In this document: piece after piece, positions 2,083 to 54,836 of the stretch | Numbering within the stretch: the stretch's first letter is position 1 | Layout: each line of letters opens with the position of its first letter | DNA from: Acidimicrobiia bacterium | GTDB lineage: Bacteria; Actinomycetota; Acidimicrobiia; Spongiisociales; JAENVV01 | DNA: 64,000 bases | Assembly (NCBI GenBank): GCA_016650365.1 | Contig: JAENVV010000313.1 | Location: 3,786 to 67,785 of the forward strand | Direction of reading: 5' to 3' | Notes under the pieces: generated by a model | Seen by the model: only the letters and a program-made list of their open reading frames with translations | Databases searched by the model: none | Told to the model about the DNA's origin: nothing | Program-made: the position numbers and the translations under genes

Positions 2083-3500
2083 CGGCCCCACCTGCCCAGT
2101 TCGGAGGCCAACCTTGCGGCCGTCACTGTGGTTTCTTCGGAGATCGCGGCGCCTGCCACGCCGTGCCAATACGCGGCCGACACCGCCGCTGACAGGGCGG
2201 AGTGCCCACCGGCCCAGCGGGCGGCAATCATTCCCGCCAAAACATCCCCCGTCCCGATGGTGGCCAGCTCTGGCCCCGGGGTGGTCACCGCAACGATCTT
2301 CGATCCTGCACGCCCCGATTCGGCGACGAACGTAGGCGAACCCTTGAGCAGAACCGTCGCGCCGGTCTCCTTGGCCAACCGTCCGGCCGAGCCATACGTC
2401 CCGACCTCCCCGGTCATCGCCTGAAACTCACCGGAATGGGGAGTCACCAGGGTCTCCCCTTCTCGCTGGGTGACAACGTCGATGAGGTTGGGAAGCCGCA
2501 AACCCCCGGCATCGAGCAGCACCGGACCTTTCCGGCGTTCAAGAATCTGCAGGATGAAATCATCGGACCCTTCTAATCCGGGCCCGACTACCAAGACACC
2601 AAATCGTGCAGCCGCATCGAGAAGCCGTGGCACATCTTCGCCCGTCCAGACCTCACGGCCTCCCAGCTCGGGTCGGAGAATCGCTGGAAACCCCCGATAG
2701 TCCTCCGCATTACCGCGGTTGACAGCAATGGCGACCGCTCCGGCCCCGCACTGCAGGGCCGCCTCGGCGGCCAGATACGCAGCGCCGGTCATTCCAGCCG
2801 ATCCGCCAACCACCATGACCGAACCAACCGACCATTTGTGGGCTTGCCGCGAGCGTTCCGGGCGAATGGCATCAGCCTCCTCGGCCACCCAGAACTCCGC
2901 CTCGCCGCCTTCGAGACCGATGTCGGCAATCGTCACTTCTCCGCACAGGTCCACCCCAGCTCCGACCAGGTGTCCGACTTTTAGGGCATGGAACGTAACG
3001 GTCCTAACCGCCCGAAACGCCGGGCCATCGACTACCCCAGTCGAAGCATCGACCCCGGAGGGGATATCAATGGCCAGAACCGGGAGGTTCGATCGGGTCC
3101 ATGGAACTATTCGATCGTGGAGCCGCCCGTGGAACCCCCCGCCGAACAACGCATCGATGACCAGATCCGCAGGAATGACCTGTTCGGACCATGGCTGGAC
3201 TTTGACGCCTGACCTGACCGCTCGGTCGGCCGCCCACCTGGCGAGCTGGCCGGCGGGCTGGGCAAACTCGAAGATCGTGACATCTACTCCCCGGCGAGCC
3301 AGGTAGTGGGCGGCGATGTACCCGTCACCACCGTTGTTGCCTGACCCGGCGAGTACCGCCACCCGGTGGCCGTAGGCGATGCCCATCTCGGCCGCCGCCA
3401 ATGCGACAGCCAGACCGGCCCGGTCCATGAGCACTTCAAGTGGGGTCGTGGATGCCTTGTCGAGCTGGGCCGAGGTGGCAGCAGTGTGAACGGGCCGCAT
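2079..3500 (-). CDS. nnr: bifunctional NAD(P)H-hydrate repair enzyme (epimerase/ADP-dependent dehydratase)
   Basis: 473 aa. N-terminal YjeF-N motif GSGNNGGDGY plus a C-terminal carbohydrate-kinase-like dehydratase domain. Confidence 0.8.
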   Translation of the reverse strand: MRPVHTAATSAQLDKASTTPLEVLMDRAGLAVALAAAEMGIAYGHRVAVLAGSGNNGGDGYIAAHYLARRGVDVTIFEFAQPAGQLARWAADRAVRSGVKVQPWSEQVIPADLVIDALFGGGFHGRLHDRIVPWTRSNLPVLAIDIPSGVDASTGVVDGPAFRAVRTVTFHALKVGHLVGAGVDLCGEVTIADIGLEGGEAEFWVAEEADAIRPERSRQAHKWSVGSVMVVGGSAGMTGAAYLAAEAALQCGAGAVAIAVNRGNAEDYRGFPAILRPELGGREVWTGEDVPRLLDAAARFGVLVVGPGLEGSDDFILQILERRKGPVLLDAGGLRLPNLIDVVTQREGETLVTPHSGEFQAMTGEVGTYGSAGRLAKETGATVLLKGSPTFVAESGRAGSKIVAVTTPGPELATIGTGDVLAGMIAARWAGGHSALSAAVSAAYWHGVAGAAISEETTVTAARLASELGRWGR

Positions 3501-3561
3501 AGCGCCAACGCTAGTGACTCATCACAGAAATAGCACCTGTGACGAAGTTGATCAACGCCGG

Positions 3562-3936
3562 TTAGTGATTACCTATGGCAATGGCGAACACCATCGCCTG
3601 ATCGTCCGTGTGCGTTATGGAGACCTCAAACCCGACGACCCCGATCATGGCCGCCCGGGCGGCCGCGGTGCCGAAGACATTCACTGTGGGCTTTCCGCCT
3701 CCGGTGATCTCGACATCGGTCCACCTGATCCGGCGCCAACCGGTCCCCATCGATTTCATCACAGCCTCTTTGCCTGCGAATCGGGCCGCCAATCGTCGGG
3801 CCGGATTCGCAAAACGAAATGCGTAGTCCTGCTCATGCTCGGTGAAACAACGCTGGGCGAAACGGGGATATCGTGTGAGAAGGTCGCCCACCCGAGAGAT
3901 ATCTGCCAAGTCAACGCCAACCCCGATAATTTGCAT
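3562..3936 (-). CDS. acpS: holo-[acyl-carrier-protein] synthase
   Basis: 124 aa, begins MQIIGVGVDLADISRV, matching the typical AcpS 4'-phosphopantetheinyl transferase N-terminus. Confidence 0.85.
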   Translation of the reverse strand: MQIIGVGVDLADISRVGDLLTRYPRFAQRCFTEHEQDYAFRFANPARRLAARFAGKEAVMKSMGTGWRRIRWTDVEITGGGKPTVNVFGTAAARAAMIGVVGFEVSITHTDDQAMVFAIAIGNH

Positions 3937-49803: not shown

Positions 49804-50238
49804 TCAGGCGCCTTCCACCCATTCGGCTCCCCCCGGCCAGTGCTCTTTCTTCCAGATGGGAGCTCGCTTCTTGAGCTCGTCAATGATGTAACGCGCCGCG
49901 TCAAAGGCTTCTCCTCGGTGAACCGAAGAAACCGCCACGAGCACTGACACCCCCCGCACGCCAACTACCCCGGTTCGGTGTTCGGCGACGATATGGAGGA
50001 GGTCCCACTCCCGGCGAGCCTCCTCGACGATCCTCTGTATCTTTCCGACCACCTGCTCGGCATAGGCTTCGTACTCAAGACGATCGATGTCGTTCTTCCC
50101 GGGTGAATGGTTTCGAACCGTCCCGGAGAACAGAACGGTCGCCCCGGCCCGGTCATCAGCCACCTCGGCGTACACCGCCGCGGGGTCGAGTGGCTCGGCA
50201 GAAAGACCAACACGGGTTCGAAGCGTTTCATCGTTCAT
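49804..50238 (-). CDS. moaE: molybdopterin synthase catalytic subunit MoaE
   Basis: 144 aa from an internal ATG (MNDETLRT). Contains LEYEAYAEQ and the C-terminal KKRAPIWKKEHW characteristic of MoaE. The ORF-track extension is spurious. Confidence 0.7.
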   Translation of the reverse strand: MNDETLRTRVGLSAEPLDPAAVYAEVADDRAGATVLFSGTVRNHSPGKNDIDRLEYEAYAEQVVGKIQRIVEEARREWDLLHIVAEHRTGVVGVRGVSVLVAVSSVHRGEAFDAARYIIDELKKRAPIWKKEHWPGGAEWVEGA

Positions 50239-50249
50239 ACAATGATCAT

Positions 50250-51395
50250 ATGCCAGATGAGCCGTCCGACGATCTTCCAATGCCCGATCCATTCTCGGGT
50301 CGGTCCGGTGACACCCCGCCCCCGTCGCCCACCAACCAAGCCGGAGAGAGGTCCGAGCCGGACCCAACGCCGCCGCCCGGCCAGGGAGCCAGCACCCATC
50401 GCCAGCCGAGTTCACCCCGTCGCTGGCCGAAGTGGGCAGGCTGGTTGAGCGCTCTCCTGGTACTCGGGATCGGCACATCAGTAGCGTTTACGCAACTGCG
50501 CGCGCCCGTCCCGGTGGCCAATCCGGTTACAACTACGACACTCCCGCCGCCTCCGGAAACCACCATCGCCGCCGTCCCGGCTCCATTCGCGGTAACCATC
50601 GAGGTCACTGGCGACGTGAGTGACGAGATCGGATTCGGTTCGGGAATCGCCATCAACGACGGAACGTACATTCTCACCAACTCTCATGTCGTCGAGACCG
50701 CCGAGTCGATCAATGTGATCGACGACGAACAGAACCGACACATGGCGACCGTGGTCGGCACCGATGCTGTTACGAATCTGGCGGTACTTCGGATTGACGG
50801 GTCGCCGCTCGTTGTGATGGGCGAACCCTCAGAGGAACCACTCACCATCGGCTCGATTGTCACTACCGTTCTGGGTTTTTCGGATCGAGCAACCGTGATC
50901 GGGACAGCTCAGAGGCTCAACATCAACGACACCTGGCGGCTATATGACCTCATTGAGCTCGATCATGGGTTCCCCACCGAGATGACCGGCGGACCTCTTC
51001 TCGACCTTGACCAACGGGTAGCCGGCGTCCTCACCATCGTGGCGGAGGTCAACGGACCCGGGTATGCCATCCCGATAGCGACCGGCCTCGCCATCGCTGA
51101 CGAGCTGATCGCGAGTGGTCAGGTCCCCCACGGGTACCTGGGACTGCAAGGCATCGACTCCTTACTCGGTGGTGTCGAGGTTTTCGCGTTACCCGCCGGT
51201 TCACCGCTGCGAGCTGGCGGCGCCCGCGAAGGGGACGTCATCGTCGGCATCGACGCAAACGAAATTACGTCAACAGCCGAACTAGTAGCGCTGCTACGGA
51301 CCTATCGTGAAGGTGACAACGTCACAGTTGACATTCTGCGAGAGTTCGAAACGATCGCAATCGAAGTGACCCTTGACCGCCATCCGGAATCGTGA
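50250..51395 (+). CDS. HtrA/DegP-like trypsin-fold protein with C-terminal PDZ domain (catalytic triad apparently degenerate)
   Basis: Pro-rich N-terminus, one TM segment and the His box GSGIAINDGTYILTNSHVV. Aligning by the conserved flanking motifs places N at the catalytic Asp position (TNLAVLRI versus DLAVLKI) and T at the Ser position (EMTGGPL versus GNSGGPL). Ends in a PDZ domain. The start codon is uncertain (50250 or 50280). Confidence 0.6.
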   Translation: MPDEPSDDLPMPDPFSGRSGDTPPPSPTNQAGERSEPDPTPPPGQGASTHRQPSSPRRWPKWAGWLSALLVLGIGTSVAFTQLRAPVPVANPVTTTTLPPPPETTIAAVPAPFAVTIEVTGDVSDEIGFGSGIAINDGTYILTNSHVVETAESINVIDDEQNRHMATVVGTDAVTNLAVLRIDGSPLVVMGEPSEEPLTIGSIVTTVLGFSDRATVIGTAQRLNINDTWRLYDLIELDHGFPTEMTGGPLLDLDQRVAGVLTIVAEVNGPGYAIPIATGLAIADELIASGQVPHGYLGLQGIDSLLGGVEVFALPAGSPLRAGGAREGDVIVGIDANEITSTAELVALLRTYREGDNVTVDILREFETIAIEVTLDRHPES

Positions 51396-52493
51396 TTGCA
51401 CATGGCAGATGACATCTTTTCCCAACTTATCGAACTGTTCAACCAGCCGGGCCCGGTGAATTGGAAATTGGCCCGGGAGGTCGCCGTTCAATTAGCCGGT
51501 GACCGGGAGCCGATCGACCCCTGGTTGGCTGATGAGTACATCGAACTGGGCCGACTCGCCCAACTTCAGATCCAAGCCGCCACTCACCTCCGGGCGCCCG
51601 ACTCACTCGATGTCGTTCCGACCGACCGCCACGACTGGGCAACTCAGCGACTGCAAGCGTTCTCATACCTCGTCGAGCCGCTCGCCAGCCAGTACGACGA
51701 CCTCGGCGGCGGTTCGGATCCGATGAGTCAGTTGCTCAAACCACTCGGCCCTGCACTACTCGGCATGCAGATCGGGTCAACGATCGGATTCCTTGCACAC
51801 CGGGCGATCGGCCAGTTCGATATCGGCCTACCGGCCAACCCGGCGGGGGCCCGTTATGTCATCGTCGACAACGTCGAAGATTTCGCCTCGGACTACCAAC
51901 TGGAACCTCGGCAGGTCCGATTGTGGGTGGCCCTGCGAAACGGTATCCACGACGCGGCCTTCGCAGGGCCTTGGTTACGGCAATACGTCATCGACCTGGT
52001 TGAGGAGCACCTGGCCGGTGTCACCTTCGACACATCCCATCTCATGGAGACGCTGCAAAATCTGAGCGATCCGAACAACATCCAGCAGATGATGGCCGAC
52101 GCAGATGGCCTCAGTGGCTTTCTCTCCCCAACCTCGACATCAGAAGCTCAGGCAAAGGCCCGGGCGGCGATCGGGTTCGTGAGCGGGTATGCCGACCATG
52201 TCTTGGGGGCTGCGGCGGGCAGCCTGATCCCTGACCGCGGCGCGATCGAGACCGCCCACCGCGTCAAACAATCTGAACCTGGAATCCCTGAACAGCTACT
52301 GACCAGACTCATCGGCATCGAACTCACCGAAGAACTCCACCAGGAAGGCGTCGAGTTCTGTGATGAGGTCGGCCGGCGGTGGGGATCCGAAGCTCTCGAA
52401 AGCGTCTGGGAAGAGCCAGCCAACCTCCCGATCGGCGAAGAACTAAGCGATCAGGTCGCCTGGGCCGCCCGGGTCTTGTTGCCAGACTTCTAG
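51396..52493 (+). CDS. conserved hypothetical protein
   Basis: 365 aa, contiguous with the upstream HtrA-like gene. No motif recognised with confidence; it may belong to an actinobacterial DUF family. Confidence 0.4.
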   Translation: MHMADDIFSQLIELFNQPGPVNWKLAREVAVQLAGDREPIDPWLADEYIELGRLAQLQIQAATHLRAPDSLDVVPTDRHDWATQRLQAFSYLVEPLASQYDDLGGGSDPMSQLLKPLGPALLGMQIGSTIGFLAHRAIGQFDIGLPANPAGARYVIVDNVEDFASDYQLEPRQVRLWVALRNGIHDAAFAGPWLRQYVIDLVEEHLAGVTFDTSHLMETLQNLSDPNNIQQMMADADGLSGFLSPTSTSEAQAKARAAIGFVSGYADHVLGAAAGSLIPDRGAIETAHRVKQSEPGIPEQLLTRLIGIELTEELHQEGVEFCDEVGRRWGSEALESVWEEPANLPIGEELSDQVAWAARVLLPDF

Positions 52494-52497
52494 GAAC

Positions 52498-53004
52498 ATC
52501 GCTACATTCGCCGGCGCACCAGAAATCAACAGAATCGGACCCGACACGACCGCCGAGATTGGGAACCCAGCACCGGACTTTGAACTGGTCGACCAGACCC
52601 GGTCGCTCGTATCACTTGAATCGCTGCTCGGTAAAAAGGCCCTGATCAAGTTCATTCCTTTCCCCTTCACAGCTGTCTGTGAGGACGAGGTGTGTGAAGT
52701 ACGTGACAACCTCTCCTCCCTCACCGACCTTGATACCAATATCGTTGTCATCACCTGTGACCCGATGCCGTCCAATGCAAGATGGGCGGCCGAACTCGGC
52801 GTTTCCTTCCCGATCCTGTCGGACTTCTGGCCGCATGGGGCCGTGGCACAGGCGTACGGATGTTTCAACGAGGCGATCGGCGTTGCCATGCGTTCAACGT
52901 ACGTCCTCGACGCCGACGGGATTGTTCGAGACATCGTTGCTACGCCAATCCTGAGAGAAGCTCGCTCGATGGCGGCGTACCACGAAAGTCTGTTGTCCAT
53001 CTGA
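52498..53004 (+). CDS. AhpC/TSA-family peroxiredoxin (start codon unresolved)
   Basis: The in-frame translation from 52498 reads IGNPAPDFELVDQ...LIKFIPFPFTAVCEDE (peroxidatic Cys) ...CDPMPSNARWAAELGVSFPILSDFWPHGAVAQAYG. The first ATG/GTG/TTG in frame is at 52690, after the catalytic motifs, so the 5' end is reported from 52498 provisionally. The in-frame stop upstream is at 52444. Confidence 0.55.
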   Translation: MATFAGAPEINRIGPDTTAEIGNPAPDFELVDQTRSLVSLESLLGKKALIKFIPFPFTAVCEDEVCEVRDNLSSLTDLDTNIVVITCDPMPSNARWAAELGVSFPILSDFWPHGAVAQAYGCFNEAIGVAMRSTYVLDADGIVRDIVATPILREARSMAAYHESLLSI

Positions 53005-53020
53005 CCGACCGTCCTAACGG

Positions 53021-53926
53021 TTAGCCGAACAGACCGTCCCAGAGTCGCTCGAAGAATCCCCGACTGTCGGGGTCAGCGAGTTCAGACAACACCCTGACTT
53101 GCACATCGACCGGCAACTCACCGACGAGCACGTACCCACCGAGGTCGCTGTGCCATGCGTACACGGCTCGACCCAACTCGAAAATTCGCTGGTACTCGTG
53201 GCCTTCGATAATTACCCGTGGCTGATCGTCCAGTTCTGGTATCGAGATCGGCCGACTCGAATTGGTGAGCTGAAACGTGAATAACCCGTCACCGTAGAAG
53301 GCCGACGACAGGTCCGATTCAGACCCGCCCCGCACCTGCAATCGCTTGAACCCGGCCAGCTGGAGCGGAAGCGTCCGATCAACATCGTCAGCCTGAACGG
53401 CACCAACAGGCTCGTGGCCATCGACCGTCGACACCCCCCGGGCTGGACCTGGCGTTCCAAGATTGAACTCGATAAACCGCGTCGTGCAATAAGTCGAACC
53501 GTCACTATTGAAAATTTCAGACATCAGGAGGACGCTGGATTCGACATCGAACGACAATCGGACTCGAAGCGTGTCACCGTCGAGCACCTCGATGACCTCG
53601 ACGGGACGGCCCAGAACTTCTCCTTCAGCGGATAGCCCGATTTCATACTGAGAACCGAGACCGGTCGAAAGGGCACCGGCTTTCGCAGCCCGGATCGTCC
53701 CGGCCGGGTCGACGGTGACGGTGATCCCGAGGTCATTCTGCCCGACGTCGAATAATTCTGAGTGCCGCCCATCTGACTGATTACATACGACCGATTGTTC
53801 GCCCGAATAGGCAACGCCCGCACTGTCGCCCAGGCGGTCGGTCAATTCGTTGGCCATCGCCGCCGTCGCCGATCCGACCGTCGCAGCCAGAACCATGAAA
53901 ACCATTACCAGCGACCGACCGATCAT
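53021..53926 (-). CDS. secreted protein of unknown function, co-operonic with sigma/anti-sigma
   Basis: 301 aa from an ATG overlapping the anti-sigma stop (ATGA), with signal peptide MIGRSLVMVFMVLAATVGSATAAMA. An RseB/LolA-like role is speculative. Confidence 0.4.
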   Translation of the reverse strand: MIGRSLVMVFMVLAATVGSATAAMANELTDRLGDSAGVAYSGEQSVVCNQSDGRHSELFDVGQNDLGITVTVDPAGTIRAAKAGALSTGLGSQYEIGLSAEGEVLGRPVEVIEVLDGDTLRVRLSFDVESSVLLMSEIFNSDGSTYCTTRFIEFNLGTPGPARGVSTVDGHEPVGAVQADDVDRTLPLQLAGFKRLQVRGGSESDLSSAFYGDGLFTFQLTNSSRPISIPELDDQPRVIIEGHEYQRIFELGRAVYAWHSDLGGYVLVGELPVDVQVRVLSELADPDSRGFFERLWDGLFG

Positions 53927-54336
53927 TGCCCGCCCCCGGCCTGGACGACACCGACGACCGGGAGGACCCCACCGTCGATCAGGGTCTGCTGTTCGTACTG
54001 GATTGAAACCTCGCGCAGTGAAAGCCCGACGGGGTCGGGCGCCGTGGCCGTCGCCGCCACGATGAAGATCATGACGGCTGCCGCGGCTGCACCCACCCAG
54101 GTGAGTGGCCGCCTGGCCAGAGGAACCACGTTTGGCACGAGTCCGAGATCGATCCGGATTGACTCGGGCATCTCCAGGACCGGGAGGGAGCGAAGCAGGG
54201 ACCGAGCAGCATGGAGGTCTTCCATCTCCCGTTGACAAGCCTGACAGCTACCCAGGTGGGCCACGAGTTTGGCGGCCTCCTGCTCGGTGGTCTCCCCGTC
54301 AAGGTATGCGGAAGCAAGTTCGCCAAGATGGATCAT
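53923..54336 (-). CDS. zinc-binding (ZAS, HxxxCxxC) transmembrane anti-sigma factor
   Basis: MIHLGELASAYLDGE...AHLGSCQACQREMEDL, then one TM helix. Its ATG overlaps the sigma stop as ATGA. Confidence 0.65.
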   Translation of the reverse strand: MIHLGELASAYLDGETTEQEAAKLVAHLGSCQACQREMEDLHAARSLLRSLPVLEMPESIRIDLGLVPNVVPLARRPLTWVGAAAAAVMIFIVAATATAPDPVGLSLREVSIQYEQQTLIDGGVLPVVGVVQAGGGQ

Positions 54337-54836
54337 GTCAATGCTTCCCGCATCATCTTGCGCCCCCGGTGAATCCGACTTCGGACCGTCCCGACCGGTG
54401 CGGCCACGGCCCGGGCGATCTCGTCGTACGAGAGACCGACCACATCGCACAGCACGACCGCCTCGCGAAAGTCATACGGGAGACCGAGCAGGGCCTTCTG
54501 GACATCGTCTCCGAGTCTGATCGAGGCGAGCACCTCGTCAGGGGCCGGGGTCGAACCAAGATTGGTCCGGTCGAAGTCGTCGGGCAGGGAGGTGGTCGGT
54601 CGCCGCTTCTTGCGACGAACATCGTCCAGGAATGCGTTGCGGGTGATCCGCCACAGCCAGCCCTCAAAGGAGCCGGGCGTGTAATTGGCGAGGCCTCGCT
54701 CGACGCGCAGCAGCACATCTTGCGCCAGGTCTTTGGCGTCGTCGGGATTGCCGGTGAGGCGATACGCGAAGTTGTAGATCTTGCGCCCATGTGTTCTGGC
54801 AACGTCTTCCCACGAGAGTGGCACGCCGTCTATCAC
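54333..54836 (-). CDS. ECF sigma-70 family RNA polymerase sigma factor
   Basis: 167 aa with region 2 (GRKIYNFAYRLTGNPDDAKDLAQDV) and region 4 (DEIARAVAAPVGTVRSRIHRGR). Confidence 0.85.
   Translation of the reverse strand: MIDGVPLSWEDVARTHGRKIYNFAYRLTGNPDDAKDLAQDVLLRVERGLANYTPGSFEGWLWRITRNAFLDDVRRKKRRPTTSLPDDFDRTNLGSTPAPDEVLASIRLGDDVQKALLGLPYDFREAVVLCDVVGLSYDEIARAVAAPVGTVRSRIHRGRKMMREALT

Follow-up and report, generated by a model that had tools for sequence, protein, structure and literature searches.

The window analysed here, a stretch of 64,000 nucleotides (64 kb) from a contig of an Acidimicrobiia bacterium, carries an HtrA-like gene directly followed by a gene of the Zincin_2 family. 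We find that both proteins of this coupled pair are devoid of the consensus catalytic machinery in one monophyletic sub-clade. Judging from the sequences, we consider that the HtrA-like protein is probably a binding protein with an HtrA fold and a PDZ domain, maintained by selection and with no or very weak catalytic activity, because its catalytic positions vary, purifying selection persists, and its Glu193/Thr195 combination matches that of the pseudoprotease MamO. The features concerned are given below, with protein positions in amino acids (aa).

50250 to 51395, plus strand: HtrA-like gene, 381 aa (ATG at 50250, stop TGA at 51393-51395; from the list of open reading frames (ORFs), with Pfam Trypsin_2 and PDZ_2)
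50250 to 50432, plus strand: Pro/Ser/Thr-rich N-terminal tail, aa 1-61, 48% P/S/T, predicted to be cytoplasmic
50433 to 50498, plus strand: single predicted transmembrane (TM) helix, aa 62-83, WAGWLSALLVLGIGTSVAFTQL (Kyte-Doolittle hydropathy)
50637 to 51029, plus strand: Trypsin_2 (chymotrypsin-fold) domain, aa 130-260 (PF13365, 54 bits, E 3.5e-14)
50685 to 50687, plus strand: codon CAT of His146, the retained catalytic His (ILTNSHVV against canonical IlTNsHVV)
50775 to 50777, plus strand: codon AAT of Asn176, at the catalytic Asp position (VTNLAVL against TDLAVi)
50979 to 50987, plus strand: Glu244-Met245-Thr246 for Gly-Asn/Ser-Ser (PTEMTGGPLLD against NPGNSGGPLvd)
51165 to 51374, plus strand: PDZ domain, aa 306-375, with the carboxylate-binding loop YLGL retained (PF13180, PDZ_2, E 3.7e-9)
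51402 to 52493, plus strand: Zincin_2/DUF2342/TIGR03624 gene, 363 aa from the conserved ATG (PF10103, 230.6 bits; TIGR03624, 222.5 bits)
51936 to 51962, plus strand: RNGIHDAAF in place of HEVTHQAEF (the HExxH motif), aligned to HEMTH of 3CMN

We mapped the catalytic triad by phmmer alignments to solved HtrA/DegP/DegQ structures and by a profile-profile alignment (hhalign) of a 15-sequence clade profile with a 40-sequence profile of canonical HtrAs. Both methods agree on the placement of the triad, with the flanking motifs in register (hhalign probability 100%, E 1.5e-49). Thr246 stands at the position of the nucleophile Ser and Glu244 at that of the oxyanion-hole Gly (chymotrypsin 193), and the L1 loop of the window protein reads E-M-T-G-G instead of G-N/S-S-G-G. 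A preliminary description of this DNA had noticed the intact His box TNSHVV, the Asn at the catalytic Asp position and the Thr at the Ser position, and had proposed a profile alignment as the check. The phmmer and hhalign alignments place all three residues (His146, Asn176 and Thr246) as it had said; the accompanying change of Gly to Glu244 had been overlooked. About 6 residues are also deleted in the clade after 'IAIG', where canonical HtrAs have G-x-P-F/Y-G, a segment that we take to be part of the LD activation loop. The equivalence of the triad residues is that of the sequence and profile alignments, and the structural comparisons that follow speak to the fold and not to residue-level superposition.

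Performing phmmer searches against the PDB, we found that the window protein matches HtrA, DegP and DegS with E values down to 1.5e-26. The AlphaFold2 (AF2) model, made from 101 sequences, has a predicted local distance difference test (pLDDT) score above 90 over aa 112-381 and is disordered upstream of that, the N-terminal tail included. When this model was compared with the PDB by Foldseek, the top matches were DegP, M. tuberculosis HtrA1, DegQ and DegS (E about 1e-22), with TM-scores of 0.68-0.80 when normalised on the target. The HtrA/trypsin fold is thus confirmed for the modelled protein. Measured against the definition of HtrA/DegP peptidases (MEROPS S1C), the fold and the C-terminal PDZ domain, which the preliminary description had also seen, are present; the His-Asp-Ser triad and the oxyanion-hole Gly are absent. 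The best scores in NCBIfam fall short of the equivalog and subfamily cutoffs (NF047968, 120.6 bits against a cutoff of 470; TIGR02037, 118 bits against 416). The Trypsin_2 profile gives 54 bits for the window protein compared with 105 bits for the canonical syntenic partner in locus L004.

The protein consists, in order, of a predicted cytoplasmic tail, a predicted TM helix, a degenerate protease domain and one PDZ domain. Its start at 50250 is supported because the orthologues begin with MPDEPS...PDPF there, an N-terminus that is kept in P0001-P0012 and in the genomic loci of the clade (the orthologue set is described below). A longer ORF from a GTG at 50103 was rejected, as it overlaps moaE and the orthologues start at MPDEPS. 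The tail carrying this clade-specific motif is followed by the TM helix, the sole segment above 1.6 in the hydropathy profile (19-residue Kyte-Doolittle mean 1.64). Because Arg/Lys residues lie directly ahead of the helix, we predict an N-in topology, in which the protease and PDZ domains are extracytoplasmic as in mycobacterial HtrA/PepD and DegS.

We collected the orthologues of the window protein from a protein search (group P0001-P0013) and from genome and metagenome loci, together 21 distinct sequences. Proteins P0001-P0013 share 52-99% identity and are separated from the ordinary HtrAs by a gap from E 1e-98 to E 1e-25. The 99%-identical independent protein P0001 carries the same residues at the catalytic positions. 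Changes were counted by minimum parsimony on a neighbour-joining tree of the 21 sequences. The Asp site, which mostly holds Asn, has undergone at least four D/N changes and the nucleophile site at least three S/T changes, while position 193 has changed at least seven times among E, Q, H and D and is never Gly. The His was lost once, in L002 (TTHTTV), and is kept in 20 of the 21 sequences. The preliminary description had suggested inspecting the orthologues for the same substitutions; most of them do not share the change of Ser to Thr, and D/N and S/T toggle in the clade. The Thr of the window is common only to P0001, P0004, P0005/L087 and L002, and most orthologues have Ser. The canonical syntenic relatives (about 65 loci), in comparison, show H-D-S with TNxHV, TDLAV and GSSGGAL and without variation, the exceptions outside the clade being L012, the frameshifted L022 and L023, and L029 and L033 at contig ends. 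In summary, positions that are invariant in the canonical relatives have become freely, if conservatively, variable in the clade, and the remainder of the protein, with the carboxylate-binding loop of the PDZ domain (YLGL/V), is constrained.

The clade, comprising the window and loci L007, L011, L016, L008, L001, L009 and L002, is monophyletic in 60 of 60 bootstraps and is nested, on a long branch, among canonical lineages. Because it sits inside those lineages and shares their synteny, the window gene is the ancestral syntenic HtrA of the class, altered in one lineage, and no stray paralogue or duplicate. We also noticed a His-Asn-Ala HtrA without a nucleophile (AAGAVL) in L012 (JBFKPQ010000130.1, about 2717-3913; protein P0014), which represents either a separate or an earlier inactivation. 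L012 appears as sister of the clade in 60 of 60 bootstraps of the HtrA tree, 58 of 60 of the concatenated tree and 0 of 60 of the Zincin_2 tree. Its firm placement as sister was dropped, since the gene trees conflict and long-branch attraction is possible; the HtrA and zincin losses may have come in either order. In L022 (5050-5995) and L023 (4997-5999), a canonical-type HtrA is split in two frames, by a frameshift that made it a pseudogene or by an assembly error.

Selection was estimated as the ratio of nonsynonymous to synonymous rates (omega) by the Nei-Gojobori method on unsaturated pairs, with 49 pairs in the canonical comparison for HtrA. For the protease and PDZ domains together, the median omega is 0.18 in the clade (range 0.11-0.24) and 0.15 in the canonical pairs. 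Within the clade, omega is 0.12-0.27 for the protease domain, 0.07-0.20 for the PDZ domain and 0.2-0.7 for the N-terminal tail. The Zincin_2 gene has a median of 0.049 in the clade compared with 0.088 in the canonical pairs. Both genes are intact, under purifying selection and not decaying.

The gene behind the HtrA-like gene had been called a conserved hypothetical; it proves to be a Zincin_2/TIGR03624 member with a destroyed HExxH motif. Over its full length it passes the profile cutoffs (230.6 bits against 25 for PF10103 and 222.5 against 136 for TIGR03624), and it matches the PDB entry 3CMN with E 1.2e-38. No TM helix is predicted (maximum 19-residue Kyte-Doolittle mean 1.19), and we regard the protein as soluble. 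The zero spacing reported between the two genes holds for an ORF counted from TTG 51396 (365 aa), which abuts the HtrA stop. We rejected this TTG as the start, as the orthologues start at the ATG 6 bp on (MADDIFSQL); the conserved start at 51402 leaves a 6-bp spacer. The two ORFs are in the same frame, the junction reading TGA, TTG CAC and then ATG 51402 (51393-51404), and many other loci have an HtrA/Zincin_2 overlap of 4 nt (ATGA) instead.

In all nine closest Zincin_2 homologues (57-92% identity), the motif is RN(G/V)(V/I)H with D(A/S)AF behind it, whereas most other Acidimicrobiia members have HEVTHQAEF. The RN(G/V)xH form is confined to the window clade, and the Glu is kept in all of the more than 170 other homologues. 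Other lineages have HEM(L/V)F, REVTN, REVAF, QEVTH and similar motifs next to a fully canonical HtrA. The HEM(L/V)F, REVTN and REVAF sub-clades are large and fall in L034-L083 (for example L053, L072 and L040). Because this Glu does not vary in the lineages outside the window clade, even where His ligands are lost, the alignment suggests that its role does not depend on classical zinc binding. In the family as a whole, HExxH is present in only 43% of Zincin_2/DUF2342 members (PMC3650047).

How might such a protein work? We propose that the HtrA-like protein is membrane-anchored and that its protease-fold and PDZ domains are extracytoplasmic. By analogy with MamO, a residue other than Gly at position 193 would block the active conformation of the L1 loop, and the charge relay and nucleophile would be crippled in addition by the Asn and Thr. 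What is left would be a binding role: as a holdase or sensor, the protein may bind C-termini or unfolded polypeptides of the envelope, or it may regulate a partner. The soluble pseudo-zincin would be made in fixed proportion to it and perhaps cooperates with the conserved cytoplasmic tail. That the HtrA-like protein and the zincin are linked physically or functionally, for example via that tail, is our hypothesis.

Several observations weigh against this non-catalytic reading. The omega values of the clade are not above those of its canonical relatives, which means that there is no general relaxation of constraint. In the clade the nucleophile is always a hydroxyl residue, the Asp site is always D or N, and the His was lost in one lineage only; the still-constrained geometry of the active site could reflect residual catalysis and not structure alone. 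P0007, P0010 and L016 even have a full H-D-S triad, and only the Gly is missing. As for a coupled loss in the two genes, the joint degeneration of both partners is a single evolutionary event, the His ligands of Zincin_2 were lost repeatedly elsewhere with an intact HtrA, and the dead H-N-A HtrA of L012 adjoins a canonical HEVTH Zincin_2. On these three grounds we rejected coupled loss as a statistical claim; the joint degeneration is suggestive of a functional coupling. The preliminary description had proposed a pseudo-protease or regulatory PDZ scaffold. The non-canonical triad, the selection and the parallel with MamO speak for that proposal; it is tempered by the Ser of most orthologues and the Asp of some, and the protein may have some residual activity.

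The surroundings of the pair are as follows.

49804 to 50238, minus strand: moaE, divergent (PF02391, E 1.1e-35; reverse ATG at 50238, 11 bp from 50250)
52546 to 53004, plus strand: AhpC/TSA peroxiredoxin-like gene, third of the conserved unit (PF00578)
53021 to 53950, minus strand: secreted 300-aa protein with a borderline MucB/RseB N-domain match
53923 to 54336, minus strand: zf-HC2 membrane anti-sigma (Pfam)
54333 to 54836, minus strand: extracytoplasmic function (ECF) sigma (Pfam); the module 53021 to 54836 is convergent to the HtrA-like unit

Scanning the GTDB species representatives with the Zincin_2 alignment, we obtained 80 Acidimicrobiia loci from metagenome-assembled genomes. On the orthologue contigs, a divergent moaE is followed by HtrA, Zincin_2 and AhpC/TSA in one direction, and these face a convergent series that runs, outwards, from the 300-aa secreted protein through the zf-HC2 anti-sigma, ECF sigma, TatA and a 313-aa protein to WhiB. 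An HtrA ORF lies directly upstream of Zincin_2 in 74 of the 80 loci, with a gap of -7 to +27 bp except in 5 loci where it exceeds 27 bp. Among the loci with enough flank, moaE is upstream in 68 of 71 and the sigma/anti-sigma module is within 6 kb in 29-31 of 60; AhpC/TSA is downstream in 44 of 60. HtrA is absent in L036, L037, L046 and L077, where moaE stands 32-154 bp upstream of Zincin_2 and the Zincin_2 motif is NEVTH, QEVAH or HEVAH.

The distance of 11 bp to the divergent moaE start, which had been pointed out before, is the rule here, as the moaE and HtrA starts are 0-14 bp apart class-wide (50239-50249 in the window, 6712-6723 in L004, 6743 in L002). Both promoters must therefore lie within the neighbouring coding regions, and the moaE and HtrA mRNAs are probably leaderless. 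Scanning 49.7-53.2 kb for promoters and terminators, we obtained no signal beyond what shuffled sequence would give. In the AhpC/TSA gene, ACG stands where the orthologues (L011, 7146; L007, 3278) have their ATG start. The next canonical in-frame start is GTG 52690, which would remove the PFPFTAVCEDEVC cysteine region; the ACG may reflect a mutated start codon, initiation from a non-canonical codon or an error in sequencing.

The preliminary description had also remarked that the ECF module lacks the htrA gene found with it in mycobacteria. There is indeed none in the operon itself; however, the HtrA-like gene is only 2.5 kb off, convergent, and linked to the module in the 29-31 of 60 loci just mentioned. 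A link of the HtrA-like gene to the sigma module is plausible. The MucB/RseB match of the 300-aa protein is 22.8 bits at a cutoff of 22.3, falls to 21.1 in L001 and is missing in L002 and L004; the position of this protein beside the sigma/anti-sigma pair is nevertheless conserved. We did not accept an RseB-like neighbour as support for a DegS-like function, the match being borderline and not reproduced in the orthologues.

The strongest competitor of the non-catalytic reading is a working but atypical protease, in which a His-Ser/Thr dyad, with Asn orienting the His, would perform slow or tightly regulated specific cleavage, for instance of the membrane anti-sigma in the manner of DegS. We hold this to be somewhat unlikely. 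It would explain why 20 of 21 sequences keep the His, why no residue other than Ser or Thr occurs as nucleophile, and why the third position holds D or N throughout, with H-D-S in three orthologues, and it accords with the strong purifying selection on the protease domain. The arrangement of TM anchor, protease and one PDZ is DegS-like, a ZAS-type membrane anti-sigma and an ECF sigma are encoded 2.5 kb away, and TSP50 is reported to be a threonine protease of the trypsin fold (PMC3344824). Against it, all members have E, Q, H or D where the oxyanion-hole Gly should be, a change that in MamO suffices by itself to disallow the active conformation. D/N and S/T switch several times at sites where the canonical relatives never vary, L002 is without the His as well, the 6-residue deletion takes out the G-x-P-F-G loop segment, and no more than about half of the loci show linkage to the sigma module. 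In trypsin, D102N is damaging in a similar way to S195T. The latter exchange greatly compromises both trypsin and thrombin (PMC8695361), which also speaks against a working Thr enzyme here.

Another explanation, which we judge unlikely, is that the protein, without catalysis of its own, activates or assists a second HtrA paralogue that is active and encoded elsewhere in the genome, just as MamE-dependent proteolysis requires MamO. HtrA proteins oligomerise, the window protein has retained its fold and PDZ domain, and the same E193/T195 occurs in MamO, which promotes MamE activity. However, we found no second HtrA gene in the 64-kb window, and the gene is the one in the ancestral syntenic slot and no duplicated copy, so that a redundancy permitting the loss would be hypothetical.

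We also entertained a bolder idea, to which we give only a small chance: HtrA and Zincin_2 would form an obligate two-compartment device, which in the clade has become a wholly non-catalytic signalling pair of pseudoprotease and pseudometallopeptidase, possibly feeding the ECF module. The extracytoplasmic HtrA/PDZ part would sense envelope polypeptides and signal through the tail to the zincin. If this were true, the core function of DUF2342 would be binding or regulation and not hydrolysis.

Finally, a decaying pseudogene or an alignment or sequencing artefact, which the non-canonical catalytic residues and the ACG at the start of the neighbouring AhpC/TSA gene might suggest, is effectively refuted by ORFs that are intact across independent assemblies, with at least 21 distinct sequences, the protease-domain omega of 0.11-0.27, the same residues in the 99%-identical P0001, and the in-register hhalign match at 100% probability.

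HtrA-family pseudoproteases and zincins with a broken HExxH are both already known kinds of protein. What appears to be new is the class-wide HtrA-DUF2342 pair, the doubly degenerate clade, and the MamO-type convergence in a non-duplicated ancestral locus. Searching the literature, we found no description of a class-wide translationally coupled HtrA-DUF2342 pair, and the searches on DUF2342, PF10103, Zincin_2, and Acidimicrobiia with HtrA returned no functional study. Should the HtrA-like protein be a maintained pseudoprotease, it would represent a fourth independent origin of pseudoproteases in the HtrA family and the first in Actinomycetota, and it would have reached the Glu193/Thr195 solution of MamO in an ancestral single-locus gene with no spare duplicate. 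The clade comes from uncultured Acidimicrobiia. The pair offers a handle on DUF2342/Zincin_2, a large actinobacterial family: does it work with HtrA, and is hydrolysis needed?

Comparing the pair with known systems, we find that E. coli DegS, the site-1 protease of the sigmaE/RseA/RseB pathway, has the same membrane anchor, protease and single PDZ, and its structure 3gdv matches the model with a target-normalised TM-score of 0.78-0.80. The genomic context is also reminiscent, with a membrane anti-sigma and a borderline RseB-like protein encoded near the window gene. However, the triad and oxyanion hole of DegS are canonical, whereas in the window protein the triad reads H-N-T and Glu replaces the oxyanion-hole Gly, and the protein scores 91.7 bits on the DegS model TIGR02038 (cutoff 423).

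The mycobacterial HtrA (Rv1223/MSMEG_5070) and PepD (Rv0983) are likewise actinobacterial and share the tail, TM helix, extracytoplasmic protease and one PDZ; the mycobacterial structures 5zvj and 7vyz are among the best Foldseek matches (target-normalised TM-score about 0.75). In mycobacteria htrA is located with sigE (PMC6538288). Unlike the window gene, the mycobacterial HtrA has a canonical H-D-S with GNSGGPL, lies within the sigE operon and has no Zincin_2 gene behind it; the window protein reaches 80.7 bits on NF050055, used for this comparison, where the cutoff is 800.

For the partner, the solved family member is 3CMN (Chloroflexus Caur_0242). The window zincin is a full-length member of the same family, but its clade is the only one seen that is also without the Glu (RNGIH).

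A further close parallel is MamO, the magnetosome pseudoprotease of the HtrA family from Magnetospirillum. In that protein, experiments showed that Thr for Ser together with Glu193 makes a pseudoprotease, and the active L1 conformation is sterically disallowed (PMC4794232). The Thr is dispensable and the protein works non-catalytically, by binding; it is the presence of MamO and not its triad that promotes MamE activity (PMC4794232). The window protein resembles MamO in its HtrA/trypsin fold, the Thr at the nucleophile site, Glu193, the retained His and, as we read it, selection without catalysis. Like a MamO-type pseudoprotease, it combines a residue other than Gly at position 193 and other than Ser at the nucleophile position in a selected HtrA fold. 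It is not a MamO orthologue, scoring 24.6 bits on NF040961 (cutoff 800), having no TauE domain and lying in a moaE/Zincin_2 context. A TauE transporter domain and a di-His metal site are found in MamO; the window protein instead has a TM anchor at its N-terminus, a PDZ domain and, in addition, Asn at the Asp position. Its gene stands in the ancestral HtrA locus and not in a duplicated copy.

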